DNA of 64,000 nucleotides from a virus. Taxonomy: Duplodnaviria; Caudoviricetes. The notes below the pieces were generated by a model that was not told the DNA's origin, ran no database searches, and saw nothing but the letters and a program-made list of their open reading frames with translations. Below are positions 2,892-59,815 of the stretch, in pieces. The position numbers were made by a program, and so were the translations under genes. Each line of letters begins with the position of its first letter. Positions within the stretch are counted from its first letter, which is position 1. The stretch lies in IMG/VR virus record IMGVR_UViG_3300005714_000005, positions 41,751 to 105,750 of that record, one strand, 5' to 3'.

Positions 2892-5800
2892 ATGGCTATT
2901 GGATTTAGCTATACGCTATCACCTGATGAGTCCAAATCAATGGCTGAGTTACAGAAGTTTATTGATAAAGTTTCAAACAAGAAAATAGATATAAAATTAA
3001 ATTTAGGTGATTTAATAGGCAAGGGTGCGGGCATTCAAGTTGGTGATGAAGTAGGTAAGAGCATTGGAGACGGAATTGCCAAAGGTGTTGAACAAAGCAC
3101 AGAAAAAGTTCGCCAAGCAACTGATAGACAAATCAAGCTAGTACAAGACAGATTAAACAATAGTTTAAATAATTTAACACTTCGAGCTGACAGTAAAGGA
3201 TTGCAAGGATTATTGCCCGTTGATGATATTATAGCTCAGATTGATAAGCTAGGTCAATCAGGAGAAAGTCTTAGACAAATAAATTTAACTGCGGCAGAAA
3301 TTCGTGCAGAGTTGCAAATGTGGGGACAAGCCTTAAATAATGATAGCAAAGAATTAGAAGAAGTTGTAGGACTTGCAGGTGAATTAGCCGATAAAGTTGC
3401 CAAACAAAAGGAAACTGCTTTAAACAATCAAGCATTACAACAACAGATAAAACTCAAACAAGCAGATATTGAGAAAGAAGTAGAGCGAATTAGATTAACT
3501 AAGGAATATTTGCAATTATCTGAAAAAGAGAAATTGGCTTTCGATAAAAAAGCAGAAGCTATGCAAATAGAAGCCTATGCAATGGAAGGTGTATCTCAAC
3601 AATTTGAGGAATATACACACCAATTAAAAGAGGAAGAGCAGTTAATGACTGCCAAACGAATTGATGACGTAGCAGATGCTTATGACAAATTGAGTGGCAC
3701 AATCCAAAACTTAGTTGTACGTTATGCTTCATTACAATTGGTACTTCACAAAATGAAAGAATATTTTCAAGAAGCAGTCCAATATGTATATGATATTGAT
3801 GACGCTTATACTGACGTTGCAGTATCAATGGATATTACACGAGAAGAATTTGCTAAGTGGACAGAAGATGCGAAAGAAATAGCCTATGCAAATGGGGTAG
3901 CAACAACTTCTATCATGGACATGGTTAAAATCTACGCTTCTGCGGGTGAGGAAATTGGTGATATTTCAGATAAACTTGCAGGTACTGCCATGATTCAGAA
4001 TATCACTCAATTTGATACTGAAACTACTACCAACATTGTAAACTCAATTATCGCACAGTTCAAGCTATTAGACAAGGAAATTAATGGTACAACAGGAAAT
4101 GTTGCAAATGCAATTGAGTACATGGGTGATAGATTAATTGCAATTTCCAATGAATTATCTATTGACAACATTAAAGGTATTCAAGAGATGGCAAATGCCA
4201 TTGATGACGCAGGTTCGGTAATCAATGCTAGCGGTGGTACTATGGAATGGTACATGGGTGTTACGAGTGCATTAGCCGAAGCGACTAACTCAACGGGAAG
4301 CGAGATCGGGGCAACGATGCGAATGGTAACTGCTCGTACTCTTCGTCAGGGTGAAGCTGTATCAGAACTTGAAGCATCAGGTGAAGATTTAGAATTTGCC
4401 ATGTCTAAAGCCGAGGATGCTTTAAAAGGTATTGGTGTAACAATTCGTGGTGAAACTGCCGACTCATTAAGAGGTATCGAAGAAATTATTGATGACGTAG
4501 CAGATGCTTGGGATACTTTATCGGATTCACAACGTCAAGCAGTATCAGAAGCAATGGCAGGTACTCAACGTTCTTCTATGTTTTTCGCATTAATTGAGAA
4601 CTATGAGAAAGTAAAAGAACTACGCGAGATTGGTCTAAATGCAGAAGATGAATTAGCTAAAGCTAACCAAGTTCGTGTTGAATCGTTAGCAGGTTTGCAA
4701 GGTCAGTTAGAAGTAACAAAACAAGCACTTTATGCAACTCTCCTAAGCCAAGATGATATGATGGGCATCTTAAAAGGTAGCGACTTCTTATTACAAGGAT
4801 TAACAAAAGTTGTTGCATTTATCAAAGATCATGCAGTAGTCATTATTGGCACACTTGTAACTAGCTTTACTGCCTTAGAATTAAAAATGTATTCATTGGG
4901 CAAAGGTGGGGCAATTTTAGCTGCACAAAATAAAATAGCTTCATTCGTAAAAGCTATTGGAACTTTAATGCAACAGTTAGGATTGGCAACAACAGTTCTC
5001 GGTGGTTTTTGGGGAGCTATGGCTATCACAGGTGGCATAGCAGTAGGAATAAGTGCATTTACTGCATTGAATAATAAAATAAAAGAAACAAAAGAAACCA
5101 TTGAGGGAGTAACGGAAGTTACTGAAAACCTAAATGATACATTAGAAAAAGTCGAAATGACAGGTAAGTTGGTAGACCAATATAAAAAAGCTAATGAAGA
5201 ATTAGAAACTATGTTGGTTGGTACAGACGAATATGCCGAGAAGCAAGAAGAAATCATTAGCTTAAAACAACAGTTAATGAAATATTCTCCTGAGTATAAG
5301 TCATTATTGGAAAACGAAACTTTAGAGTTAGAAAAACAATACAACATCATGAAAGGTATGTTGGACTTAGAGTCTAGGGAAGCTATTCAAGAAGCAATCG
5401 ACAATTTACCTAAAGCAAGTACAGGAATCGAAACCAAACGTGCAAGAGGTATTGTAGGTAATCTTGATGACGTTGAACAACTACTGCAAAATTTTGTAAA
5501 AGCAAAAGAAGATTATGAGGCATTGGTAGCAAATCAAGCTAATGTTCCAATTGAGCAAATGAGAGAATATCAAAATCAAATGGAAATAGCAAGAAAGAAT
5601 ATGGAGCAATCTGAAAAAGATTTCCGAGATTCAATGTCGCCATTATCAGATTCTTTATCTTGGGTAGAAAATTATAATGAAGCCATTAAAAAAGGTATAG
5701 AAACATTTGCAGATATTGGTGGTCGTAATCCTATTGAGTTACCTGACGGAACAGTAGAAAAATATCAAGATATTGCAAGTTTATATTATGACATCAAGGG

Positions 5801-8800
5801 AATGGCAGAAGAAACTACAGAAAATGCTAAGGAACAAGCCTCAGTATTAGAAAGTATTAAAAATATGGAAGTGGGTAAAACTTTCAAACTTGACAACCTA
5901 AATTCAGAAGGCTTAAATCAGTTAATTGGCGAACTTGGCAGAGTTAAAAATAGTGGAGAAGAAGCTGAATTAATTCTCAAGAAAATGAAAAGTGCATTTA
6001 GCGATATACCTGAAGATATAGAAACCTTAGCAGATGCTATTGATTATCTAAATGATAAAATCAAAGATACTACTGAAGCGTCAAAATTAAAAGAATTGAA
6101 TGACGATTATATCAAATTGGGAGAGAATATGCAAGAAGCCCAAAAGCTACTAAACTCTCTATTAGACACTCCTTCTATTGATACATTAAGAAGAGCATTT
6201 GATTCAGATTTACTGAATGACTTCAATGGTTCATTTACTGATACTGTTGCGATAGCAGACCATCTTACAAATAAAATTAGAGAGATGGAAGATGCAATGT
6301 ACTCTGCTACTGCAAACATGGCATTGGCAAATAATCAAGCGTGGGATGACATGACATCTAAAATGGCAGAATCGCTAGGTACAAGTGTAAATGACTTTCA
6401 AGATTTTGTCAACAAAGTTAATGGTTTAAGACAAGTTGATTTGAAAAATTGTGAAAATGCAACACAGGCTCAGAATTTAATGGAAGCTCAATTGGCTACG
6501 AATGGTATGAAATACTATGTAGAGATGATTAACTCTAAGGCTAGTAATCGTCAAACAGATATGCAAAATGTTATTGAGTTCTTAAATACACAAGGAGCAA
6601 AAGAAGCTCAAACTGTACAACAACTAGCAGATATGTGGGCAGCATTTTACAAAGCAAAAGCAGACGCCATCAATGCAGAAATTCAAGAGTTCAACAAGAA
6701 AGTTGGAGAGATGAACAAGATGGGGCATAGCCTTGATTCTTGGGAAGGCTTCGAAGACATGATTATGGGTAAAAATGGTGTCTCTAAAACAGCTAAACAT
6801 CAGTATTCAAAACTCCAAGAACAGTTGACTTCTTTAAATAACTTAAACTCAAGTTTCACAAACTATTTCGCAGGAATTAAAGATACATTCAAAGGAATAA
6901 CTGGTGGATTATCACAATCTTTAGCAAGTACCGAAAAATTAACAAACTTTATCAAAAACTACGGTAAAGATTCGAAGAAGAAGAAAGATAGTTCCAAAGA
7001 TAAAAATAAAGATAAAGATAAAAAAGAAATAGCGGATTTAGATTTAAAAATTGATAAATTTAGAGAGTATGAAGAGGCGGTCAACAGAGCTTCTGAGGCT
7101 CTACAAAGAAATCAAGAAGCCCAACGTATGGTAAGTTCTAAATCTGAACTGAAGAAACTCTTAACAGATGAAATCGACCTGATGAAGAAGAAAAAAGAGT
7201 CATTAGGTAAATTACAAGAAGAATACAAAAAAGAGCAAGAGTTCTTAAAAAGTCGTCTTGAAATATCAGGACTTATCTTCAAGGGTGATGAAATAGCAGG
7301 AGATAAGATTACTGGTGGTTCGGTGGCAGACCGTTTAAAAGATGCAGAAAAATGGTCTAATGCTGCTTCAGGTAAAGAAAAAGAGTGGCGTATAAATGAT
7401 ACTGTAAACTTCCAAAAGAACATTGATGCTTACTACGAATTAATGAACCAATTGGGGAAAGTCACTTCTGAATACAATGACATGGTTTTTGAAATTGAGC
7501 AAACGAAGAAAGCTCATGAAGAACTTCTAAAACAGATTGAGAATTTGGTTGATAGATACTATGAACTAGAAGATGCGATTAGTGATACAGGTCGTGCATT
7601 AGATAGATTCAGACGTAAAAAAGATGACTTGACTACAGTTGAGGAAGCCATTGCATATCATAAGGAAGAAAACAAACTAATCCAAGATAAAATCAATGCC
7701 TACGAAAAACTTTTAGCAGAGCAAAATAAAGCTAAGGAAGAAAGTAGAAAAGAGTTAGCTTCAAAAGGATTCAAGTTTGATGAATTTGGCAATGTTATCA
7801 ATTATAAAGACAGAATTAAAGAACTACAAGACTATGCAAATACATTAGCAGGCAATGCTCAAAAAGCTCAGATTGAACACATTGAGTCATTGAATGAGAT
7901 GATTAACAAGTATACTGACTTAACCAATAGTGCAATTCCTAAAACTGAAGATGCTATTCTTGACTTAAAAGATGAAATTAAAGATGCTAATAAAGAATTT
8001 GAGGAAATGATTAAAACAGTTGAGAAACTTGGTGAGAAATACTATGGCTTAACTGTATTGCTAAATAAAATTGACTCTGCTTTAGCATTGAATAAAACTT
8101 TACAAGAGAGTGCAACTGGTGAAAGACGAGTTGAGCTATTGAATGAAGAAATCAAGTTAATCAGAGAGAAACAAAGTTTACTAATGCAACAAAAAGAAGC
8201 ATACGAACAAACTGCTAGTTCTCTCAAAGGTCAATTAGTGGAATATGGTGTTGCTTTCAAAGAAGATAGAACTATTAGCAACTACGAGTGGTTGGCAGAA
8301 ATGTATGAGAAACGTGCTAATGCCTTAGTTGGTGAAGCAAGAGATAAAGTATTGAAAGAATACGAAAAACTTGTTGAATTGATGAAAGAGTATGACGAAG
8401 TGACTTTAGATAGCTTACCTCATCTTACTCAAGAATGGGAGAAATATTCAAACACTATCAAAGACATTGAAAAAAGTAAACTTGAGTCAATCACCAATGT
8501 TGAGAAAAAGATAACAAGTGCTTTAGAAAGTGAATTGACTAAACGATACAATCGTATCAAAGAGTCTATTCAAAAACAAAAAGACTTGTACAATAAACAG
8601 TATCAACAAGAAGATTGGGATAAGAAGTTATCTGCTGAACAACGTAAGCTAGACGAAATCAAGCAACAAATGGTGGAGTTATCAAGAGATACATCTGCCT
8701 CAGGTCAAGCCAAACTTGAGCAACTGAAACAAGAATATCAACAACAGTTAGATGCTATCAATGACATGATTAGAGAAAATGAGAAAGAGTTAGGTAATCA

Positions 8801-9269
8801 ACGTTTTGATGAAGAAATCAATAAGATTGAAGAAGAACTCAAAGACGCTATTTCTCCTGAGAATCTTGCCAACATGGTAAATCAAGCATTAGTATCAGGA
8901 TTTGCAACTGTTGGAGACGAGGTTGTAGAATTAAATGCTCTCATGACTGATTGGTTAAACAAAACAGGTGATGGTTTATATTCTATTGGTGACTACTTGA
9001 AAAATGAATTGATTGCTAGTTTACAAGAGGCTAAGATTTTAATGCAAGATGTAGGAATAACTGGCGATATTGCAAGTCGTTCAATGAGAACTATCGTAGA
9101 CGCAGACGTTAATCCTAGAGGTAGAAATACAGGAGTAGTCTTTAATGCACCTTTCCTAGAAATTCAAGGAAATATTACAGAAGAAGTATTCCCACGAGTT
9201 CAATCTATGATTCAAACTGCTAAAAATGAAATCATTACCGATATTGAAAGAGTTATTAATCAAAATTAA
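2892..9269 (+). CDS. Tail tape measure protein
   Basis: 2125 aa, coiled coil, TP901/PhageMin_Tail-type core (GSEIGATMRMV...DAWDTLSDSQRQAVSEAMAG), hydrophobic segment at about aa 650-730. Confidence 0.93.
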   Translation: MAIGFSYTLSPDESKSMAELQKFIDKVSNKKIDIKLNLGDLIGKGAGIQVGDEVGKSIGDGIAKGVEQSTEKVRQATDRQIKLVQDRLNNSLNNLTLRADSKGLQGLLPVDDIIAQIDKLGQSGESLRQINLTAAEIRAELQMWGQALNNDSKELEEVVGLAGELADKVAKQKETALNNQALQQQIKLKQADIEKEVERIRLTKEYLQLSEKEKLAFDKKAEAMQIEAYAMEGVSQQFEEYTHQLKEEEQLMTAKRIDDVADAYDKLSGTIQNLVVRYASLQLVLHKMKEYFQEAVQYVYDIDDAYTDVAVSMDITREEFAKWTEDAKEIAYANGVATTSIMDMVKIYASAGEEIGDISDKLAGTAMIQNITQFDTETTTNIVNSIIAQFKLLDKEINGTTGNVANAIEYMGDRLIAISNELSIDNIKGIQEMANAIDDAGSVINASGGTMEWYMGVTSALAEATNSTGSEIGATMRMVTARTLRQGEAVSELEASGEDLEFAMSKAEDALKGIGVTIRGETADSLRGIEEIIDDVADAWDTLSDSQRQAVSEAMAGTQRSSMFFALIENYEKVKELREIGLNAEDELAKANQVRVESLAGLQGQLEVTKQALYATLLSQDDMMGILKGSDFLLQGLTKVVAFIKDHAVVIIGTLVTSFTALELKMYSLGKGGAILAAQNKIASFVKAIGTLMQQLGLATTVLGGFWGAMAITGGIAVGISAFTALNNKIKETKETIEGVTEVTENLNDTLEKVEMTGKLVDQYKKANEELETMLVGTDEYAEKQEEIISLKQQLMKYSPEYKSLLENETLELEKQYNIMKGMLDLESREAIQEAIDNLPKASTGIETKRARGIVGNLDDVEQLLQNFVKAKEDYEALVANQANVPIEQMREYQNQMEIARKNMEQSEKDFRDSMSPLSDSLSWVENYNEAIKKGIETFADIGGRNPIELPDGTVEKYQDIASLYYDIKGMAEETTENAKEQASVLESIKNMEVGKTFKLDNLNSEGLNQLIGELGRVKNSGEEAELILKKMKSAFSDIPEDIETLADAIDYLNDKIKDTTEASKLKELNDDYIKLGENMQEAQKLLNSLLDTPSIDTLRRAFDSDLLNDFNGSFTDTVAIADHLTNKIREMEDAMYSATANMALANNQAWDDMTSKMAESLGTSVNDFQDFVNKVNGLRQVDLKNCENATQAQNLMEAQLATNGMKYYVEMINSKASNRQTDMQNVIEFLNTQGAKEAQTVQQLADMWAAFYKAKADAINAEIQEFNKKVGEMNKMGHSLDSWEGFEDMIMGKNGVSKTAKHQYSKLQEQLTSLNNLNSSFTNYFAGIKDTFKGITGGLSQSLASTEKLTNFIKNYGKDSKKKKDSSKDKNKDKDKKEIADLDLKIDKFREYEEAVNRASEALQRNQEAQRMVSSKSELKKLLTDEIDLMKKKKESLGKLQEEYKKEQEFLKSRLEISGLIFKGDEIAGDKITGGSVADRLKDAEKWSNAASGKEKEWRINDTVNFQKNIDAYYELMNQLGKVTSEYNDMVFEIEQTKKAHEELLKQIENLVDRYYELEDAISDTGRALDRFRRKKDDLTTVEEAIAYHKEENKLIQDKINAYEKLLAEQNKAKEESRKELASKGFKFDEFGNVINYKDRIKELQDYANTLAGNAQKAQIEHIESLNEMINKYTDLTNSAIPKTEDAILDLKDEIKDANKEFEEMIKTVEKLGEKYYGLTVLLNKIDSALALNKTLQESATGERRVELLNEEIKLIREKQSLLMQQKEAYEQTASSLKGQLVEYGVAFKEDRTISNYEWLAEMYEKRANALVGEARDKVLKEYEKLVELMKEYDEVTLDSLPHLTQEWEKYSNTIKDIEKSKLESITNVEKKITSALESELTKRYNRIKESIQKQKDLYNKQYQQEDWDKKLSAEQRKLDEIKQQMVELSRDTSASGQAKLEQLKQEYQQQLDAINDMIRENEKELGNQRFDEEINKIEEELKDAISPENLANMVNQALVSGFATVGDEVVELNALMTDWLNKTGDGLYSIGDYLKNELIASLQEAKILMQDVGITGDIASRSMRTIVDADVNPRGRNTGVVFNAPFLEIQGNITEEVFPRVQSMIQTAKNEIITDIERVINQN
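7041..8480 (+). repeat. Three ~160-aa internal repeats in the tape measure protein
   Basis: IDKFREYEEAVNRASEAL / VDRYYELEDAISDTGRAL / GEKYYGLTVLLNKIDSAL, each followed by a G(L/F/V)xF segment; starts near 7041, 7542 and 8025. Confidence 0.65.
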
Positions 9270-46383: not shown

Positions 46384-49300
46384 TTAATCTTCTGTGCGAT
46401 AACGTTCGTCTTGCAACAAGCATACACCATCTTCATATATCTTTTCAATTAAGCTAGTTGAGTGTGACCACAATCCGTTCTTGTATGACTTCACTCTAAA
46501 AATATCACCATTGCGAATACCACGAATCATGAGTAAATTACCTCGTTGAAACCATGACTTCTCGACAACTTTATTCTTACCTGTTTCTTCATCAGGAATA
46601 GAAATAGACTTGTCATAGAAAGCAAACTGCCCTGCTTGGTATTTACAATTGACAACCCCAAATTCAGTTAATAGGGTTAGGGTATGTTTATTTTTATTCT
46701 TACCTAAGACAACTCCACAAATTTGTTCAATTTTGAATTTAGGAATACGGATAACTTCACCCGTTTCCTTGTTAGTCTTTTCCCAATAATCCTCAATTAC
46801 AGGTTCGGTTGGTAATTCAAAGTGGTTGGCAATATTGTAGTATTCCTTATTGATATGACTCAATTCATGGTCACTATAGTACATGGCTAGACTTTCAAAT
46901 TCCCAAGAGGCAACAGTACCCTCTGCATGGGCTTTTTTGACGTCTCTGAACAACGATTCATTGTAGGCTTGTAATAACTCATCACTACGCATAAAGTCCA
47001 ACAGACGACCAATCTTACGCTTATAGATAGCTTCAAATGAATCTTTGCTTGTTGCTCCACTTTCTACCCAAATAGCACTTGAATAGTATTGTCCGTCATC
47101 TTCTACATACTCCCAATGTTTACCTTGTTGTAACTCAGGGAACATATTGAAGAAAGCATCAACAACTTCTTGGGTATCAACTTCATCTACACCATCTAAT
47201 AGATACCACTTTTTAGATTTCGTAACTTTATATCCATCAACTTTATGAAATGGTAATTTACCATCATCAACCTTAACACCTTGACGTAAATATTCTCGGA
47301 AATCATAATACATTAATTCCTCATCATATTCACTAGGGATTAAACCACGTTGGATTAATTGATCTAGGTTTGAAGCAGTAATTGCTTTCTTATTAGGATA
47401 TTCCATATGTAGATACTCATCAAGCAACTCAACTCGTGTCTTGTTGGGTTCAATCGTATCAAATGAACCTGCTTTGATTAGATTAATCATTTGCTCTTTG
47501 CTAATTAATGCTTTCTTTTGCACCTTGCCATCTTTGTTGATTACCTCTTGCTTTGTTAAGTGCAATCTATCATGAAAATCTTTCATTGACGTATAAGGTC
47601 GATTAGCAATAATAATCTCGGCAGTTTTATTATTGATTGATGATATACCCTTTAGACCAAAGATAATTGAGTTTGTTTGTTCATCGGGAATGAAACCTGT
47701 TAATGCTTTGTTAATGTCAGGCAAAGCAATAGTTACACCTTGTTTTTGTAAAGTTGCAATTGCTCCACCCATAGCTTCACGGTCAGTACCATTCTCTTTA
47801 TTCTCACCCTCAGTCGTTTCACGTTCAATAGCACCTGACTCTGTAAGCAATACAGAAGTTGCCCAATAGATAGGTGGGAATGAAGTAGCATAATAAGCCT
47901 CTTGTAATGCAATTTGACTATAAGGGATACAATGATGCTTACTAAATCCATCGTTTATACCCCCTCTTTCGAGGTACTTTAACACTAATTTAATAGTGGG
48001 ACTAGACTATATCTTCTTATGTGCTTATTAATTATAATATACTTTAGCAAATACCCATTTATAACCCCATACTGTTTTTCGTTTGCCTAAACAACAATGT
48101 GAGATTGCTCCATTATCTCTCTTTCCTAACTCCTTATAGGCTTCAGTTATTAGAGGATAATGTTTAATAAAATTACCTTCTAAGTCAAGTTGAACGCAAC
48201 CATCTGAACATAACCATTTATCATAAACGTCTTTAACAGGTTCATTATCAATGTCAACTCTTCTCCATTGATATTCATAATGAACACCACCATCAAAGAC
48301 TAATTTATTATTATATTGATTTTCTCTTATTCCTAGTTGTCTCATGGCTTCGCTTATTGAAATATATCTGCCTATGTATTGACCTCTTAGATCATAAACA
48401 TCAACTTCTTTTTGATGTGAGCATAGTTTATTATCCATAGCATGACGCATATTTTCTTCAGCAGTACACCACTCAAGGTTGGTTACACAATTGTTTTTCT
48501 TATTGCCATCTATGTGATTTACATAGCGTTTATTATCTTTATTTTCAATAAAATATTCTGCCACTAAACGATGGGCGTATAGATAATATTTATTTGAATC
48601 ACACGCTATACAATATTGACAATAATCTGATTTCTTATTAACTTTTGGTGTTAATACACCTTGTGTTTTCCAATGTAGTTTGTCAACTCGTCTACATCTT
48701 CCCAAAGAAGAAATTTCATATAAGGTTTCTTTGCTTTCAATATAAATTCTTTTCCACTCTTCCAATTTATTTTCCTTTCCTAAACACATAAGTTGTGGCA
48801 CTTCCAAACAAGGACTTTCACCTTGAATGTACTCTCTTCCGAGATAGTCGTTGCACGTTTCTGTCAATAACAGACTTCGCACAGGATTACCATATCATTT
48901 CTGACTTAGGCTTCCCCTGTTAGCTCATTAATTCATCATCATTTCCTATGATTACTCAGTCGTTTAATGAACACCCTATATTTATAGGTTCACCACAAAT
49001 GGGCTATTTGCTTAACCCCTCTTGCATCTTAATTTGAACATTCATTACATAATCTAGCAATACTTTTCGATTTCCTAAAGCTAGACCACATTTATAATAT
49101 TCTTCCTTAGACTTCTTGATTTTGGCTTTATCTTTTTTACTGATTGCCTTACGTAAAGAGTTGGCTTGAGGAATTGTAAAACCTGCTACACGTTTATCCA
49201 TACATAGCAACATCATACCCTCTTGATTAGATAAAGTACCACAATCGTAATCCAAGTGTTCGTGCATAGCTTGGCGTTCTTCTTCATTAAGTCCATAGTC

Positions 49301-52300
49301 AATCATTTCTTGTTCCCATTGCTCAGGATTTTCACGTAAACGAATGTAGCGTTCAGCAGGTTGTTCGCCATCTTCTGCAACAAGTCGCATTAGTGAATTG
49401 GTATTGGCAAGTTCGACTAGAGAACGTGGCTTGATTGTTTGTAGGGTTTTCATACCGATAGGTGTCTCGTATTGAAATGCTTTAAGTAATTGTCCACTAC
49501 CTAAAATGTCATATAATCTACTATCTTCAAAATCCATAACATTAGGGTGAATGTTATGACGATAGGTTTCTTTTAAACTACCTTTATCTTCCATATGCCC
49601 ATATTCAACCAATAATTCCAATGTATTCTGAATCATTGAAGCACCTTCAGTCTTGAGGAAATCCAGTTTAATCCCACCACAAGCCTCGACATCCTCTAAC
49701 GCATATTGAGTAGTGATAGCACCATTTTTTGAAGTCATTAGGGCGGTACAATCTATAATATCCATATGAGGAACAACTCCACCTGGATGAACTCCACGAC
49801 CGTTAATTAATCCCTCGATACCCTTGATTGCTTCATATAGACCTTCATACTTATCTATCTCTCTGACAAACTCTTTAATAGGTTCATATTCCAATTCTTC
49901 ATTACCAAACACAACATTTTGCAATGAGCGTACTGTACCTCGGTCAGTAGGTATTAGACTTGATAAATACATACCAATATCGCTACCAATTTCTAAACCA
50001 CGACAAGCAGTTTGAATGGCAGACTTTAAGGTTTCTGTTTTGTAAGTACCTACATGAACTAACTCACCACCAATGCTTTGCATATATTTACGACATTCAT
50101 CAAATACAATTTCTGCCCTACTTGAATTAATATCTATATCTATATCGGCAATTTCAATTTTATTCTTTTCAATGAAACGCCAATGTTCTAATGGTAAAGG
50201 TTGCTTCAATGGATTGATTTGCACGATTTCTAAGAGATAATTTAGAATAACAAGTCACCCCAAAGTTTCCTTTGGGCTTGGACTATCTCTTCAACACAGA
50301 TGTGTTGTCTTGCGCTTCGAGGTGTGGTTAATTCACCCCTACTCTACTCACTCACAAGAGCTTTCGATAGTCTCTACATTACTTTTCTATCTTCCATCTG
50401 TAGCCATATCTAACTTGGTTTGATTGTATCCCTTGTCTTATTGAAGTAACAAATATTTTATAAGTTGTGGTTGTCAAACCTCTTTTAATACAATGGTCAT
50501 AAGCTTCTTTTCTGTTGTTAAATATTAAACATTCACTAGCATTTTCAGCAATAATAGTAACTTGTTCTATTTTCGCCTCAGACAAATTCTTTTTATGTTC
50601 TTCAGATTTGGGTTTATTGGTCAGAGATTTGGCAATATTTTGTTTCCATTCTTCAGTTCTTTCAACTGATTTCATTTTCTCTATGGTTTCTTGCTTATGC
50701 TTACTTCCAGTTCTTCTTTCTATGTGAAGTTTTTTCCGCTCCTCTGTCCATTTAACTCCCATGTTTTTCTTAACTGCACTTAATTTAGCCCTTTGCTCAG
50801 GCGTTCTTCTCTTGCCTTTGTTTGCCTGTGAAATCTTTTGCTTAATATCTTCTGACAATTTATAGCCCTCTCCACCAGGAGTCATATTATAATGCTCTTG
50901 GCTTAAATATGTATTGTATTTGGCAATATAGTATATTTCTCTTTCTGAAGCTTCTTCCTCGGAAAGCCCTTCTTCTAATATCTCCCACTTGAAAGCCTCT
51001 TCAGGATATTTTCGCAAAGCACGACAGAAAGCCGATTGCCGCCCTCTCTTGCTATCTATATAATGTTTTCTCCTTCTCTCTTTTAGAGTTTGACTTGTCT
51101 TACCAATATACATATGCCCATTTATTTTATTAACAACTAGATAAACTAAACTCATGTTTTCCTCCTTTTCTTATAAAGGAAGATAGAAAAATAACACGGT
51201 ATTACCACTATCCTTTTTAAGGACTTAGGCTCTCTTACCAGACAATTTACGTCTATGACCGTTAGCAACTCTTTTGAGTTACACCACAGAACCACTGTGT
51301 TCACAAGATTTATACTGAGCCTATAACCTTAACCCAGCTGCTGAACCACGAGAAATAGCAAGAATTGAATTAGCATCATTCCAAATAATATCAATAAACT
51401 TATTCATAAGAATGAAGTATGCAGACATATTCAGATTACCAAATTTGGCAATACCCAATATTTCTTCAAATTCCATGTTGACACGTTTGAACGTTTCCCA
51501 CCATTCTTTTTTATCTGAAATCAAGAATGTATCACTCGCTCCTTGCATAGCTAATGACATCAAATAACCGTCATATAGATTTTCACTCTCCCAAGCATCT
51601 AAGCATAATGAGAAATCCATTTCATTGTCATAGAGCATGTCCAATATTTCTTCATTCTTAAACCACTCTCCTTCAGGCGGTAAAGGAATTTCACATACTT
51701 GCTGTGGTTTACGAATATCATATGTAGTAATTGACTCTTTGATTTTCCATGTATTCATGATACATTCATCAACAAACTCTGCACCCAAATAGAAATCCAA
51801 GTGTTTATGTATTTCTTCTGAACTCATGTGATAGGTTGTTTCATAGAAATCATCACGCTCACGAGCATTAGACTTTTCCTCATTCTTATCGGCAGTTAAG
51901 AAGATACTATGTAACCATTTATATTCTGCACTTAGGAAGTGAGCATCAGTTGCAATTGTAGCTTGAACACCTCTATCACGAATCCAAGTGTTGACTACTT
52001 CTTGCTCAGTAATGATTTCTTCACCATTTTCGTCATATTTGCGTAAATGAGGTTGCATTTCTAAATAGAAATTCTCTTTACCAAATACACCTTGACACCA
52101 ATAAATAAAATCATTTACTTTATCATATTCTTCTGCTAAAATATGCTTGGCAGTAAATCCACCTAAACAACTTGAAGTAGCTACCAAATGACCAGGATTA
52201 CTACCAACAATTTCTTCAAGGTCTGAGTAGTAAGTGGGTTTTCGTTCAACACCTTTCCAAGTAAAGATACGTGACCAAGCACGAGTTGACAATTCTTTTA

Positions 52301-52685
52301 ATTGTCTATGCCCAATTTCATCCTTTGCTAACAAGATAAAGTGGTAGAAAGTTACTCGCTCTTTATTCGCCATGCGTTGGTATATATCTTCATCAACAAG
52401 ATAGATTTCATTACCTAAAATCAACTTGAAGTCTTGAGGAATATCTCCATTCTTTTTAAGTTTCTCCCATGCTTGAATTGCTTTTACATGACCACCTACT
52501 GACTCATGATCTGTAAAGGCAACTGCTTTCTGACCTAGACTAGCTACATATTTCATAACTTTCTCTGCCTTGTTAATACTATCTCGGAAACCAATAATAT
52601 TGCTATAGTCAGTATGTGAGTGTAGGTTTACAAAATAATCTACCAATGCTTCGAGGTAGGTTGTAAAACAGTCTTTATTGTTCAA
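46384..52685 (-). CDS. dnaE: DNA polymerase III alpha-like (family C), spliced join(52685..51332,50250..49015,47951..46384), 1385 aa
   Basis: PHP domain (LHSHTDYS, TDHE, TDAH); splicing restores RGSAAG-FILNYLL and QEG-YGFSKHH; DIDID, HPGG, KLDFL. Confidence 0.95.
47952..49014 (-). mobile_element. Group I intron 2 in dnaE (1063 nt)
   Basis: GGG T|...G|AT GGA TTT junction; R element CAACGACTA, S element AAGATATAGTC; ORF lies between R and S. Confidence 0.92.
48028..48765 (-). CDS. Intron-encoded HNH endonuclease with NUMOD1-like domains (probable TTG start at 48765)
   Basis: YEISSLGR, AHRLVA, VNHIDGNKKNNCVTNLEW. Confidence 0.88.
   Translation of the reverse strand: MEEWKRIYIESKETLYEISSLGRCRRVDKLHWKTQGVLTPKVNKKSDYCQYCIACDSNKYYLYAHRLVAEYFIENKDNKRYVNHIDGNKKNNCVTNLEWCTAEENMRHAMDNKLCSHQKEVDVYDLRGQYIGRYISISEAMRQLGIRENQYNNKLVFDGGVHYEYQWRRVDIDNEPVKDVYDKWLCSDGCVQLDLEGNFIKHYPLITEAYKELGKRDNGAISHCCLGKRKTVWGYKWVFAKVYYN
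50251..51331 (-). mobile_element. Group I intron 1 in dnaE (1081 nt)
   Basis: P1 GCUGGGU/GCUCAGU with a U-G pair at the splice site, terminal G, R element GAGACTA, S element AAGAGATAGTC. Confidence 0.92.
50379..51155 (-). CDS. Intron-encoded GIY-YIG endonuclease with NUMOD3 repeats
   Basis: LVYLVVNKINGHMYIGKT, YNMTPGG. Confidence 0.9.
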   Translation of the reverse strand: MSLVYLVVNKINGHMYIGKTSQTLKERRRKHYIDSKRGRQSAFCRALRKYPEEAFKWEILEEGLSEEEASEREIYYIAKYNTYLSQEHYNMTPGGEGYKLSEDIKQKISQANKGKRRTPEQRAKLSAVKKNMGVKWTEERKKLHIERRTGSKHKQETIEKMKSVERTEEWKQNIAKSLTNKPKSEEHKKNLSEAKIEQVTIIAENASECLIFNNRKEAYDHCIKRGLTTTTYKIFVTSIRQGIQSNQVRYGYRWKIEK

Positions 52686-52719
52686 CTCAACTCATCTCCT
52701 CTCTTTAACTTACAATATT

Positions 52720-52750
52720 ATTATATACTCGAGGTTTACAAAAGTCAACT
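52720..52750 (-). promoter_or_regulatory. Sigma-A promoter with dyad
   Basis: TTGACT-17-TATAAT; GTTTAC-AAAA-GTCAAC. Confidence 0.85.
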
Positions 52751-52787
52751 AGATTTTTATCAAAAACAAATAAAATTTAATTTTATG

Positions 52788-52819
52788 TGAATAAATATAG
52801 AAATGTTTGCATATAATAA
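52788..52819 (+). promoter_or_regulatory. Sigma-G-like antisense promoter, copy 2
   Basis: TGAATA-18 nt-TATAATA. Confidence 0.45.
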
Positions 52820-52827
52820 ATGAGCAT

Positions 52828-52853
52828 AAGAAAAGAGAGGGCTACGCCTCTCT
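52828..52853 (-). terminator. Intrinsic terminator after recJ
   Basis: AGAGAGG/CCTCTCT plus TTTCTT on the minus strand. Confidence 0.75.
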
Positions 52854-55828
52854 ACTTAACTCCAAATTTTCGTCTACGTCTACCACTATCTGCATTAATA
52901 GGTCGTGTGACAAACTCTTTAATGCTTACTTGTGGGTAGTTTTTACCATTAAATTCATTAACCTCAAATGTACCAATGACAGTTACTTCAATCTTTTTAT
53001 TACCTACACTATCAGTACCTAATCCACGAGTTTGTTTACTATTCTCACATACAAATTCCTTATAAACATCGGCAGAAGTGAATGGTCGTACAAAGGTGAT
53101 TTCCTCACCATTGACATTAGTTGTAAATTTCATCATGGTTTGAGTCTTACCCAATCGTTGCACATCGGCAGTTTCAATTTCAATATTCTTAATAACAAAG
53201 ATAGGTTTCTCCATACCTTTGCCACCAAAGATAGACATAACTTTACCAACTCGCTCAATATGTCGATTTTTAAGTTTAGTAACATCAATCTCCATGTCAA
53301 CATGATATACAGGTGTTAAATCTTGCCCTTCTAATTGAGCATTACACCACTCTTGAAGTTGAGTTGCATTATTTCTATCAAATGTGATCCCAAATGCTCC
53401 TTGATGCGTGTGAATCCTATGTTTCCATAGGCACAGACTATCTCTTAATCATCTCAAAGATGACCACACCCTTTTCGAGCAACGTGTGAATAGTTACCCT
53501 ACTTCGCTACTAAGCGAATAGTCGTTACAGGTTATTAAAACTTTATACTATCTACTTTTGTTTTCTAATAGGATAATCATACCCCTCTATTCTTGACCAA
53601 TCACGTCTTCCATAGTTAATATTGTCAAGCATGGCTCTTGTTAAACCATGCTTAATTTTAATATCACCCAATGTCAACTCTGACGTAAGCAAATCAATTA
53701 CGATTTCCTCTATTTTAGCTTGTGTAGGTCTTTTGGATAGAGGTTTAGTTTCTTTTCGCAAAGGGTATACTTCATTTTCATCGCAATGATGTTTTCCTAT
53801 GTTAATCATCGTTATGGACGACCTAGACACCCCATACTTCTTAGAAAGTTCTTTCTGAGTTAGATTTGTTTCTTTTAAGTCCTTTTTGATTAATTGTACC
53901 AACTCTTTATCAAGGTCTTTGTCTTTTACTCTTAATGGATAATTATACTCTTCTATTTTGTGATTTCTTCCTACTCTACAATCATCTATATAATTCATCT
54001 TTACTTCGCACATCTCGGCTATTTCTTCTTCTGCAAAAGTAGTCCAATAAAGTAAATCTGACACCATGAGAAATGTTGATTTCGGATAGTGTAAAAACTC
54101 CGTTCTTGGTGGCTCTTCTCCTCCTTTTGTGGAGTTGTATCCATTTCTAAAAGTGTCATAGAACTCAATAAAATAAATCTCCATCTCACAATAATTCTCA
54201 TACTCTCCAAGAGATTCCGTTATAAAGTTTTCCATTCCATATTTTACAATAGCTCTAGCCAACTTTGTTTTCTCTTTGTGAGCCTTTCTTTTATGCTCCT
54301 CAAAGCGTCTCAAGTAGTCAGTAGACTGTCCTATATAACTCTTGCCATTAATTATATTTGTTATTTTGTAGATATGCTTTTTCTTCATTTTCTCACTCCT
54401 CTTAGTGAGACAGTATAAAGTTTTAATCTTCCCACGAGATTGCCATATCCATTTAGGACTTAGGTTTCCTCGTTAGCACACTTTCAAAAGTGTACCCCCA
54501 CCACCAATGGGAAAAGGTGTGACTGGGCAATCTTATTTACCCGAACAAGTTATCATACCGCTAGAACTCAACCATTCATTCAAATTGCTAATAGGGAATT
54601 TATCATAGTTACGACCACTACCACCCTCTTTGTTTAGTAACAATACAGGTCGCATATACTCTTGTGCTAATTTGTTAGCAACCAATCCACCATGACCATT
54701 ACCAATTTTATCTGTTGAGTCATAGATAATAACAGGATTGTTTTGCAATTCGTTAGACTCGATTTCACTCTTGATAAGTGCTAATTCTTTCTTAACTTCT
54801 CTATCTTGTGTTCCTTTGATAGATTTTGCTCTACGGATAATATTTGCTTGTAAACTTTCCTCAATTGGTAATTTATCAGGATTATCTTTTGTTTTCTTCT
54901 GAGGTTGGTAAATTCGTGTTTCTTCAAAGTTGACCAATGCCTTGAATAAATCATATCTATCTTCTAACGAACCTTGTCGGAAGATAGCATTAATAATAGG
55001 AGCTACATCCCAACCGATTGTATCAATCGTAACTTCTGATACGTCTTTACGTTTTGAGGCTTCTTCAAGAATAGCCTGTAGCAATAAACTTGACTTACCA
55101 TATTCTTTCAATCCTTCAAGAATTAAGAATCGAGTTTCATAATTACGAATATCAACCAAATCCGCAACTAAACCTGTAGCAACTAAATCCATGTATTCAT
55201 GTGCATTAGGTTCTAATCCCAATTCTTCAAAGTAGCGATATTCAAATTCATCTAGGAATTTATAAACTACTCCAGGTGCAGATAGAGTTGGGTTAGGATA
55301 TTGCCCATCTTGATTGTTGATGACACAAGCAGGTGTATCACTAATATCAACATCAATTTCATGGTGGTCTAGGATAAGCAAATCAATACCCATTTCATCT
55401 AATACTTTATGCCATTCTAAATCACTAGACGAGCTATCAGGTGCAATAATTAAATTTGTTTCTTTTGGAATACGAGATACAAAATCCTCATTTAACCCAT
55501 GTCGTTTTCCCTCGTTGCAATCAAATGTCAATGCTACATGAGGGAAATTACGTTTAATCCATAGGTATGTATATGAGGCACTCGTGATGCCATCGCAATC
55601 GCAATCTATGAAAACATGAATATTTGGATTCTCTTGTTCTAAATGAAATTTCAACATCTCCAACCCTAAGTCAATATTCTTTAACAAATTAGGGTCATGA
55701 ATAACGTCTTCTTGTAAATTTAAGAAAGTTGTAGGGTCTTGAACCCCACGAACTTCCAATAGCTTATGTAAAAATTGCTCTTCGCTTAATCGGTCAATAT
55801 TGGTATTAATTCTTGCTGCATACTTCAT
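52852..55828 (-). CDS. recJ: RecJ-like DHH ssDNA exonuclease, spliced join(55828..54539,53406..52852), 614 aa
   Basis: DCDCDG, HGL, ILDHH, INNQ, ADLVD, GSGR; splicing restores CSG-HQGAFG. Confidence 0.93.
53407..54538 (-). mobile_element. Group I intron in recJ (1132 nt)
   Basis: GGT|...G|CAT CAA GGA junction; R element TAACGACTA, S element AAGAGATAGTC. Confidence 0.92.
53552..54388 (-). CDS. Intron-encoded GIY-YIG endonuclease with C-terminal HTH repeats
   Basis: HIYKITNIINGKSYIGQS, GYNSTKGG. Confidence 0.9.
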   Translation of the reverse strand: MKKKHIYKITNIINGKSYIGQSTDYLRRFEEHKRKAHKEKTKLARAIVKYGMENFITESLGEYENYCEMEIYFIEFYDTFRNGYNSTKGGEEPPRTEFLHYPKSTFLMVSDLLYWTTFAEEEIAEMCEVKMNYIDDCRVGRNHKIEEYNYPLRVKDKDLDKELVQLIKKDLKETNLTQKELSKKYGVSRSSITMINIGKHHCDENEVYPLRKETKPLSKRPTQAKIEEIVIDLLTSELTLGDIKIKHGLTRAMLDNINYGRRDWSRIEGYDYPIRKQK

Positions 55829-55852
55829 CTATTCACTCTCCCTCAATCATTT

Positions 55853-56020
55853 TTACTCTTTGTCAAATAGTTTTTCTGAATAATAGACTTTCTGTTCTTC
55901 AGTCAAATCAACATAGACATCCGATATATCGGTCAACACTTGATTCACAGTTTTTGGCTTTCCATTTTTGTCTTTGGTTTGTATTCCCAATTCATTTAAG
56001 ACCTTATTCTTCATGTTCAT
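55853..56020 (-). CDS. 55-aa protein resembling a tape-measure core segment (not in ORF track)
   Basis: AGGAGAG RBS; MNMKNKVLNELGIQTKDKNGKPKTVNQVLTDISDVYVDLTEEQKVYYSEKLFDKE. Confidence 0.75.
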   Translation of the reverse strand: MNMKNKVLNELGIQTKDKNGKPKTVNQVLTDISDVYVDLTEEQKVYYSEKLFDKE

Positions 56021-56029
56021 TCACTCTCC

Positions 56030-56323
56030 TTATTTACTCACTCTAATACTACCATCTGATTCATAGATAGGCGTTAATGTCATTCCATATCCAACATAAA
56101 AATAATAGTAATGCACTCCCGTTTGTGTATCACGTACTTCTCTAAGTTCACTTGTTATTTTTTCAACAATTTCAAATCTATCTCCACTATAGTTAATATA
56201 ATCAACTTCTTTTTGTTGTAGTGGATTTTCAATTGCATTACCATTTTCGTCTAAGTAAACGACTTTTTGCTTACATCCTACAAGAGTTAGAAGTGATAAT
56301 AAAATAATTAAATACTTCTTCAT
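56030..56323 (-). CDS. Small lipoprotein
   Basis: MKKYLIILLSLLTLVGC lipobox; RDTQTGVHY motif. Confidence 0.8.
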   Translation of the reverse strand: MKKYLIILLSLLTLVGCKQKVVYLDENGNAIENPLQQKEVDYINYSGDRFEIVEKITSELREVRDTQTGVHYYYFYVGYGMTLTPIYESDGSIRVSK

Positions 56324-56337
56324 CTATTCACTCTCCT

Positions 56338-57489
56338 TTACACATTAAATAATTCTTTAAAATCTTCATCAACATCTACAATGGTCACTTTATTCTTCAT
56401 CAGATACTCAAACTTTTCCTTACCCCTATCACATGGGGCATCTTTCATGCTCAACTTATCATCAAAGTCAATTAATAAATTAACTGTCATGTAGCTATGT
56501 AGCAACTTACATGCCTTCTTCAATTTCTCAAAGTAGGCAAACATCAACCTTTGCTCTTTAGTACCATCATATTGCTCACTATAATATTCCTCACAATATT
56601 CCTTATCCCAAGCAAAGGTGACTTCAGTTACTCCTAGTGCCAATAGAATATCTCTATGAATGATACCAAAGTTCGTACCATAAGTTGCCAATGCAAAACA
56701 TTCTCCTTGATAATACGAATCCACGATACCCACCGACTTTTCCGACTCGAATACAATAGCTTTACGTTTAGTTCTAATGACTTGTTGATTTTCATATAAT
56801 CCGTATAAAGTTGTAGATGTGGGGAATCGGTATGACTCCCCTTGATATTCAAGTGGCATATACTTGAATCCTCTCTCAACTGTTTGCTCATCAAAGTTAC
56901 GAACACGAATACCTATTAATCCACCCTCTATATTCCTCACAGGAATAATAGCACGATTTCTATTGTGGTCGTATCGGAAATCAAACTTATCGGCAGTATA
57001 ACCATCTATTCCTTCTTCTTGCCAACATAAGGGGTAGACTTTTGCAAATTTGTCCAATACTTCATCATCGTATAGAGTTTCAACCTTACGGACTTCACGT
57101 TTCTTTCGATTGTGTATTGCTAGAAAATCCATATCACGATTTTCTTCCGTAACACGTTTCAGACCTCTATTTCTCTTACGAGTGTTGACATTTACACCTA
57201 TGTATTTACCAATTGTTTGAATGATTTCTTGAAAGGGCATTCCACTTAAATGCTCAATCAAGTCAACTAGATTTCCATGTACTCCGCAACGGTAACAATG
57301 GAATTTACCAACTTCTTCATCGTTAGTGGGTTCATAGTAATATAGCTTATGCTTTTGACTACCACAACATAAAGCTTCAAATAGGATATTACCCTCTCTA
57401 TCATGAATGAAGTCTATATTGTACATATCAACCAATATGTGCTTAATATCATCTCTACTAACTTTCTTTAATAAATCCTTAACTTCCAT
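56338..57489 (-). CDS. DNA primase
   Basis: N-terminal Zn finger (CC...CYRC), IIPVRN..G.LIGIRVR, LYGL, TOPRIM FESEKS and AWDK. Confidence 0.88.
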   Translation of the reverse strand: MEVKDLLKKVSRDDIKHILVDMYNIDFIHDREGNILFEALCCGSQKHKLYYYEPTNDEEVGKFHCYRCGVHGNLVDLIEHLSGMPFQEIIQTIGKYIGVNVNTRKRNRGLKRVTEENRDMDFLAIHNRKKREVRKVETLYDDEVLDKFAKVYPLCWQEEGIDGYTADKFDFRYDHNRNRAIIPVRNIEGGLIGIRVRNFDEQTVERGFKYMPLEYQGESYRFPTSTTLYGLYENQQVIRTKRKAIVFESEKSVGIVDSYYQGECFALATYGTNFGIIHRDILLALGVTEVTFAWDKEYCEEYYSEQYDGTKEQRLMFAYFEKLKKACKLLHSYMTVNLLIDFDDKLSMKDAPCDRGKEKFEYLMKNKVTIVDVDEDFKELFNV

Positions 57490-59783: not shown

Positions 59784-59815
59784 ATTATATTTCAAAGGTT
59801 GAGAAAAGTCAACCT
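59784..59815 (-). promoter_or_regulatory. Sigma-A promoter with dyad
   Basis: TTGACT-17-TATAAT; AGGTTGA-GAAAAG-TCAACCT. Confidence 0.85.

Follow-up and report, generated by a model that had tools for sequence, protein, structure and literature searches.

The stretch of DNA that we analysed (the window) covers the final 64 kb of an IMG/VR record, which has 105,750 bp and is estimated to be 68% complete. The tail genes and the other late genes are on the plus strand, and the replication genes are on the minus strand. Between two of the replication genes, a primase and a RecJ-like exonuclease, lies a small gene whose product resembles part of a tape-measure protein (TMP). We will refer to this gene and its product as the mini-gene and the mini-protein. 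The features of this region are:

59784-59812, minus strand: sigma-70-like promoter (TTGACT-17-TATAAT, 11/12; a consensus match only), the likely start of the operon
56338-57489, minus strand: DnaG-type primase, the upstream border of a variable hotspot
56318-56336, minus strand: 19-nt exact direct repeat, primase-proximal copy, with the ribosome-binding site (RBS) and start of the lipoprotein gene
56030-56323, minus strand: lipoprotein cassette with DUF6440, 97 amino acids (PF20037, 1.3e-8; lipobox LVGC)
56024-56030, minus strand: Shine-Dalgarno sequence AGGAGAG, which overlaps the lipoprotein's stop codon and is part of a TAAGGAGAGTGA-type repeat
56015-56020, minus strand: ATGAAC, a deletion scar (by comparison with the relative L023)
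55853-56020, minus strand: the mini-gene, 55 amino acids if counted from the first ATG (at 56020); stop codon TAA at 55855-55853
55823-55841, minus strand: 19-nt exact direct repeat, recJ-proximal copy, with the RBS and start of recJ; ancestral, and also present in L002 and L003
54533-55828, minus strand: first part of the RecJ-like DHH exonuclease, the downstream border of the hotspot
52852-53295: second part of recJ (RecJ_OB)
52834-52853, minus strand: hairpin resembling an intrinsic terminator (a consensus match only), after recJ and the likely end of the operon

The putative operon comprises genes for a 173-aa protein, the DnaB helicase, the primase, the lipoprotein, the mini-protein, and RecJ, and has no strong internal signal. 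The initial annotation had reported an ORF with a strong RBS between the primase and recJ, and we found it with exact coordinates and strand, a length of 55 amino acids, and the AGGAGAG Shine-Dalgarno sequence.

Two of the replication genes in this phage group have insertions. In the window, recJ is interrupted, with about 1.2 kb between the DHH and RecJ_OB parts, and the interruption carries a gene for a GIY-YIG endonuclease with a helix-turn-helix domain (53552-54388). (L003 and L023 have an uninterrupted RecJ of 614 amino acids.) Rfam at the gathering threshold gave no group I intron model in 49000-57000. In L023 (339-3209), the gene calls split the DnaB helicase in two (239 and 320 amino acids), with a LAGLIDADG-like ORF of 277 amino acids in between; this is a further mobile insertion.

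In the relatives, the mini-gene's start codon is at the site of the window's second ATG (56014). The ancestral mini-protein therefore had 53 amino acids, starting at the second ATG, and the extra "MN" is a deletion scar. ATGAAC and the RBS before it match the RBS and first two codons of a Dam methylase gene that precedes the mini-gene in L023. (The methylase start in L023 reads ...taaggagagtgaATGAACATG; the window reads ...taaggagagtgaATGAAC and then, across the junction, ATGAAGAAT.) A deletion joined the methylase's RBS and ATGAAC to the mini-gene's own ATG (ATGAAGAAT). The predicted product is a soluble protein of 53 amino acids and about 6 kDa, with an acidic C-terminal half and no signal peptide. 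Two variants depart from otherwise invariant positions. In the window alone (55853-55870), the C-terminal L-F-G motif has D instead of G, which is invariant in all of the other mini-proteins and in TMPs. In P0013, a variant from a Logan contig, E replaces the invariant G of the L-G-I motif, but this could be an assembly error.

The homology of the mini-protein to TMPs is based on four independent libraries and on the predicted fold. A resemblance to the TP901-type core had been noticed by eye, and profile searches bear it out: all three of the distinct family members match PF10145 (best E=2.2e-7, for a relative of the window's protein), and the window's protein matches profile positions 153-200 of 201 with E=6.3e-5. 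All three also match TIGR01760 (best 9.6e-6, at positions 194-238 of 349), and at least 13 PHROG families of TMPs match the mini-protein family (best 1.1e-8). The PF10145 score is 23.4 bits, and it falls short of the gathering cut-off of 33.2 because the mini-protein covers just a quarter of the domain (48 of 201 profile positions). The TIGR01760 score does not reach its cut-off either (18.5 bits against 28.8).

Searches of nucleotide sequences point the same way. When the window's protein was compared to 50,697 phage records with tblastn, there were only weak matches, but nearly all of them were inside TMP genes. A stand-alone relative, P0002, is 38.5% identical over residues 2-53 to the TMPs of Bacillus phages BMBtp2, proCM3, and TP21-L (tblastn, E=6e-8, 2.3 Gb). 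When the mini-protein was aligned to three TP901-type modules with hhalign, the match was at 98.1% (E=1e-13, 25% identity) and had no gaps. This alignment runs from the family's A-S-K to L-F-G-K-E, and the mini-gene ends right after that. The motifs that the mini-protein has in common with PF10145 and TIGR01760 are L-G-I/V, a D-x-N-G turn, L-S/T-x-x-Q-K/R, and L-F-G. The likeness to TMPs is far beyond chance, and the mini-protein is homologous over its full length to one module, of about 50 residues, from the core of TP901-type TMPs.

The AF2 model of the 53 residues alone has a pLDDT of 87.8, so the mini-protein folds confidently by itself in AF2. The model has a helix at 2-8, a hairpin-like turn at 13-19, and helices at 23-36 and 39-49. 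In other words, the module is predicted to consist of a short helix, a beta-hairpin turn with the TKD-NG motif, and two helices that end at LFG. The initial annotation had named the lack of a structural match to TMPs as grounds for rejection. In a Foldseek search of BFVD, the best matches were almost all models of TMPs or minor tail proteins (probability about 1, TM 0.6-0.74, rmsd 2-3 Å), so at the level of the predicted fold there is such a match. Solved structures gave less. A sequence search of the PDB returned only chance-level rows, Foldseek against the PDB gave no match at E<=0.001, and VIA-align against 48,161 chains gave no usable match (the best Z was 3.7, and HMG boxes had Z about 3). 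The edges of the mini-gene mark those of a unit that folds autonomously, in a family of proteins for which no structure of this region has been solved.

Since the alignment is full-length and ungapped, the excerpt corresponds to one structural unit. The mini-protein is homologous in sequence to the PF10145/TIGR01760 core and is predicted to share its mini-fold along the whole length of 53 residues, but it contains only a quarter of the domain and is below the cut-offs of the TMP core families. It also lacks the long helical ruler, the hydrophobic segments, and the tail-tip end of TMPs; it has 53 amino acids instead of 600-2100; and its gene is in a replication operon, on the opposite strand from the tail genes. 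Because it falls short of the family cut-offs and lacks every architectural feature of a TMP, we do not consider it to be a TMP. Very probably, it is a stand-alone excerpt of one compact module of the TP901-type TMP core.

Which TMP does the mini-protein resemble? The phage's own TMP is encoded elsewhere in the window:

2892-9269, plus strand: the phage's own TMP, 2125 amino acids, after two ORFs that are in the chaperone position and in different frames
4422-4562, plus strand: the homologous module within this TMP (residues about 511-557), at the end of its PF10145 domain

The PF10145 domain of this TMP spans residues 326-557 (nt 3867-4562). (Further PF10145-like matches within the same TMP, at 5913-6317 of the window with E of 0.03-0.5, were rejected as helical noise.) The two ORFs directly 5' of the TMP gene (1767-2800 of the window) encode 184 and 158 amino acids and have no match in Pfam; the second is in another frame and starts 3 nt past the stop of the first. 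Such a two-frame pair of ORFs before the TMP gene is the usual layout of a frameshifted pair of tail chaperones (G/GT). The TMP gene of the relative G001 (IMGVR_UViG_3300045988_118936) is split by a group I intron (L011 1916-2244; RF00028, 69.1 bits, E=1e-16). Introns are unusual in tape-measure genes. This one falls within the PF10145 domain, where it precedes the module represented by the mini-gene by a few dozen codons, and its position marks the part of the TMP that is most conserved.

An alignment by eye had paired the mini-protein with the segment of the phage's own TMP at 4422-4560. This alignment is homologous (hhalign: 95%, E=4e-8, 16% identity, one gap), although the relation is detected by profile methods alone: BLASTP of the mini-protein against this TMP gave nothing significant. 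The initial annotation also stated that the mini-protein fits the TP901-type core better than it fits the phage's own TMP, and the hhalign results show the same order (98.1%, E=1e-13 versus 95%, E=4e-8). But the idea that it mimics this phage's own TMP specifically does not hold up, as it is closer to foreign TP901-type TMPs. From these sequence comparisons, the mini-gene is not a recent copy of the phage's own TMP; instead it resembles the canonical core from small temperate siphophages of Bacillota.

This pattern raises the possibility of a weapon against rival phages. The mini-protein could co-assemble with TP901-type TMPs, or it could compete for the tail chaperone, and it would then poison the tails of resident prophages or of co-infecting siphophages while sparing the phage's own divergent TMP core. 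For a poison to spare its own phage, it would have to show just the pattern that we see: it should be more like the TP901-type TMPs from small temperate phages of Bacillota (25-38% identity) than like the TMP of its own phage (16%). Interference with tail assembly by mobile elements is also established (the Tai proteins; PMC11364771), and the mini-protein is predicted to be cytoplasmic and is probably made early. However, none of the databases that we searched contained a specific target TMP with high identity, and the known interference systems are found in prophages and satellites, not in large phages during lytic growth. Also, published attempts to model TMP complexes with AF2 failed (PMC10747895). 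Overall, we consider both versions of the weapon, including the sparing of the phage's own tails, to be improbable, although among explanations by mimicry they are the main rival to the sensor mimic that is described below.

To see if the mini-gene is a functional gene, we considered its relatives. We found it in 12 contigs, which represent 7 DNA variants and form two clades at 60% identity, and it is intact in all of them. A full HMMER scan of 1.8 billion representatives yielded just one stand-alone relative (P0002, with 53 amino acids and 60% identity), and cluster look-ups yielded further near-identical variants. (The remaining HMMER hits, to TPR-like repeat proteins, were dismissed as compositional.) No members outside of one phage lineage were found by a word-indexed search of 5.8 billion proteins, at near and longer lengths, or by scans of viral, metagenome, and genome contigs. 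Scans for relatives or prophage copies that were based on RecJ recovered just G001 and a single distant contig; none of the hits was in a bacterial genome. The ESM Atlas has small viral clusters (62-127 amino acids), some with PF10145 on 27-34% of their members, which are leads at most and might be fragmentary gene calls.

Between the two clades, there are 23 nonsynonymous differences at 129 sites and 21 synonymous differences at 30 sites (Fisher p=7e-8). Within the clades, there are few changes, and most of them are synonymous. Omega is about 0.1-0.3, or about 0.1 with the Jukes-Cantor correction. An antisense ORF is open in the window, but there are stops in the other clade, so the antisense frame is not conserved. 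The last helix (EEQKVY-SEKLF) is invariant between the clades, even though TMPs vary at this site. We conclude that the mini-gene is a real gene and is under purifying selection. The initial annotation had named a lack of stand-alone homologues under purifying selection as grounds for rejection, and the 12 contigs from two clades (p=7e-8) show that there are such homologues. The mini-gene's amino acids do change about 2.4 times faster than those of its neighbours (dN of 0.20, versus 0.08 for the primase and RecJ), which would fit with an arms race, but also with weaker constraint.

These data also bear on whether the mini-gene is a captured gene fragment that is carried beside recJ and has no function. 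The family is tiny, it is limited to one phage lineage, it is absent from one relative (G001), and illegitimate recombination is frequent in its region, all of which might be expected of a remnant. But the frame, the start, and the stop have been kept through about 28% nucleotide divergence, and the excess of synonymous changes is strong (p=7e-8). The gene has its own RBS in every arrangement, and the edges of the ORF are the edges of the structural module. Given the signal of selection, we think that a functionless remnant is very unlikely.

The interval between the primase and recJ has at least seven arrangements among the window and its relatives. (The primase of the window is 86% identical to that of L003 and 74% identical to that of L002.) These are:

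Window: primase, lipoprotein, mini-gene, recJ
L003: primase, orf67, mini-gene, recJ
L023: primase, lipoprotein, orf67, Dam methylase, mini-gene, recJ
L024 and L025: lipoprotein, orf67, orf66, mini-gene, recJ
L026 and L027: orf66, mini-gene, recJ
L008: orf67, mini-gene, orf157
L002 (from G001): primase, Dam methylase, recJ; the mini-gene is absent from the whole 120 kb

The hotspot (55823-56346 in the window, and the corresponding regions of L003, L008, and L023-L027) thus contains six different small genes, namely the DUF6440 lipoprotein, ORFs of 67, 66, and 157 amino acids, a D12 Dam methylase, and the TMP mini-gene. D12 Dam methylases are typical anti-restriction cargo. Across the relatives, the mini-gene is the most persistent tenant of the hotspot (it is directly upstream of recJ in five of the six arrangements that include it), and the other genes are swappable. 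Every cassette in the hotspot is preceded by a TAAGGAGAGTGA-type RBS repeat. The window's pair of 19-nt repeats are two of these, and a third, partial copy precedes the mini-gene's ORF. The repeats look like a substrate for recombination by which cassettes are gained and lost. The initial annotation described a repeat-bounded cassette. The repeats are real (the exact 19-nt pair), but the lipoprotein and the mini-gene are separate cassettes and not a single unit.

It had also been suggested that the mini-protein acts together with the adjacent lipoprotein. Such a pair might form a two-part superinfection-exclusion system that acts against incoming TMPs, in the manner of Ltp. The two genes do adjoin in the window, and the lipoprotein bears a slight resemblance to Cor exclusion lipoproteins (phrog_1119, E=0.009), for the most part in the signal peptide. 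But the lipoprotein does not always accompany the mini-gene: L003 and L008 carry only the latter of the two, and in L023-L025 there are other genes between them. Also, because the mini-protein has no export signal, the two proteins would be on opposite sides of the membrane. Because of their independent distribution, a joint system is nearly excluded. Taken by itself, the 97-aa lipoprotein is possibly a superinfection-exclusion moron, judging from its sequence. It also has a faint match to a PADLOC candidate, PDC-M46A (E=0.002).

The location beside recJ might instead suggest a role that is unrelated to tails. The mini-protein could be a reused helical module that acts as a partner or regulator of RecJ or the primase, or as a DNA-binding or regulatory factor. 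The mini-gene's site is constant, directly before recJ, in all but one of six arrangements, and its predicted co-transcription with replication genes would also be consistent with this. There are also weak signals of HMG boxes: Pfam's HMG_box_2 matches two of the three members with E=5e-4, and VIA reports HMG boxes at Z of about 3. However, these signals are at the level of noise (the best Z was 3.7). Furthermore, G001 has the same primase and RecJ but not the mini-gene, and in L008 a different gene comes after the mini-gene. We know of no replication protein family that uses the TMP-core module. We regard a tail-unrelated role as conceivable but doubtful.

Another interpretation is based on bacterial immunity. 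Phage structural proteins are what many bacterial immune receptors sense, and the conserved TMP core was added to these in 2026. Little is known about the ways in which phages respond to such receptors, since the sensed folds cannot easily mutate away. SeAvs18, which is a STAND immune receptor, binds a central helical segment of TMPs, of roughly 130 residues, which is the most conserved region of these proteins (PMC13581612, Nature 2026). The bound segment is necessary and sufficient for activation (PMC13581612). Similarly, the SNIPE nuclease contacts TMPs during injection (bioRxiv 10.1101/2025.11.03.685801). Because this segment is an immune epitope for SeAvs18 and SNIPE, a mimic of a conserved TMP segment has an obvious possible use.

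Our leading candidate for a function, which we offer tentatively, is that the mini-protein mimics the TMP-core epitope and blocks a sensor, such as one of the Avs18 type. This is possible but far from assured. In this scenario, the mini-protein would be made before the late tail proteins, and it would act via the module's recognition surface, mimicking the TMP core. It would occupy a protein that recognizes the TMP core without doing the job of a whole TMP. The most likely target would be an Avs18-like immune sensor in the host, for which the TMP core is the trigger. The fragment would fit in the sensor's pocket but would be too small to trigger oligomerisation, and so the alarm would be blunted once the real TMP appears.

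Several pieces of evidence favour this sensor mimic. First, there is the homology itself, from four libraries and the predicted fold, and the excerpt is one structural unit that AF2 folds alone (pLDDT 87.8). Second, the gene is intact in 12 contigs, with purifying selection (p=7e-8) and an invariant last helix. Third, it sits in a hotspot with D12 Dam methylases, where cassettes shuffle at the RBS-like repeats while the mini-gene stays, and it is in the same putative operon (59812 to 52834) as the helicase, the primase, and RecJ. This setting (a small accessory gene in a variable hotspot with Dam methylases, and early expression as inferred from the predicted operon) is of the counter-defence type, and the context fits an accessory or counter-defence role. 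Fourth, immunity that senses the TMP core has been published (PMC13581612; 10.1101/2025.11.03.685801).

There are also several caveats. Avs18 has so far been described in Proteobacteria. If a segment is sufficient as a trigger, then a piece of it might activate the sensor instead of blocking it. Because the mini-protein is only about 16% identical to the module in the phage's own TMP, it would not fool a sequence-specific sensor of that TMP, only a sensor that recognizes the fold. A close relative (G001/L002) lacks the mini-gene, and the amino acids evolve about 2.4 times faster than those of its neighbours. Finally, the segment that Avs18 recognizes is described without coordinates in the text, and it may or may not be the PF10145 module.

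More broadly, phages might repeatedly excise a small folded piece from the most conserved part of the TMP and produce it early, to act as a competitive antagonist of the Avs18-like pattern-recognition receptors that detect this same piece. We think this generalization is unlikely, but if it is true, then there would be a new class of anti-defence proteins, the self-derived epitope decoys, and this mini-gene would be among its first members. The profiles in PADLOC-DB do not match the mini-protein at E<=0.1, none of the catalogued anti-defence proteins are of the TMP-core-fragment type, and we did not find a TMP decoy or a stand-alone TMP-core mini-protein in the literature. A small and selected separate copy of a conserved piece of the TMP is a concrete and cheaply testable candidate for an answer to these receptors or for a weapon against rivals. 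If neither of these holds, then this is a clean case of a virion-protein module that was domesticated into an early accessory gene.

How does the mini-protein compare to known systems? SeAvs18 and SNIPE are host defence proteins, known from Proteobacteria, whereas the mini-protein is the product of a phage gene; no phage-encoded inhibitor or decoy has been described in the literature for either of them. The Tai proteins of prophages, PICIs, and P4-like satellites inhibit tail assembly (PMC11364771). Like the mini-gene, tai genes are accessory genes in hotspots of mobile elements, and Tai stops other phages from building their tails. But Tai targets the central tail fibre or needle and is not a fragment of a TMP, and we detected no similarity between it and the mini-protein. 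DSAD1 from SPbeta is a small phage protein that blocks DSR2, a sensor of the tail tube. In its proposed role, the mini-protein would be similar to DSAD1, as both would be small phage proteins that act against a sensor of a tail structural protein. To our knowledge, DSAD1 is not derived from the tail protein that is sensed. In contrast, the mini-protein, if it is an inhibitor, comes from the very family of proteins that is sensed. In this view, it would be an accessory protein that works by mimicry and that is built from a module of a virion protein.
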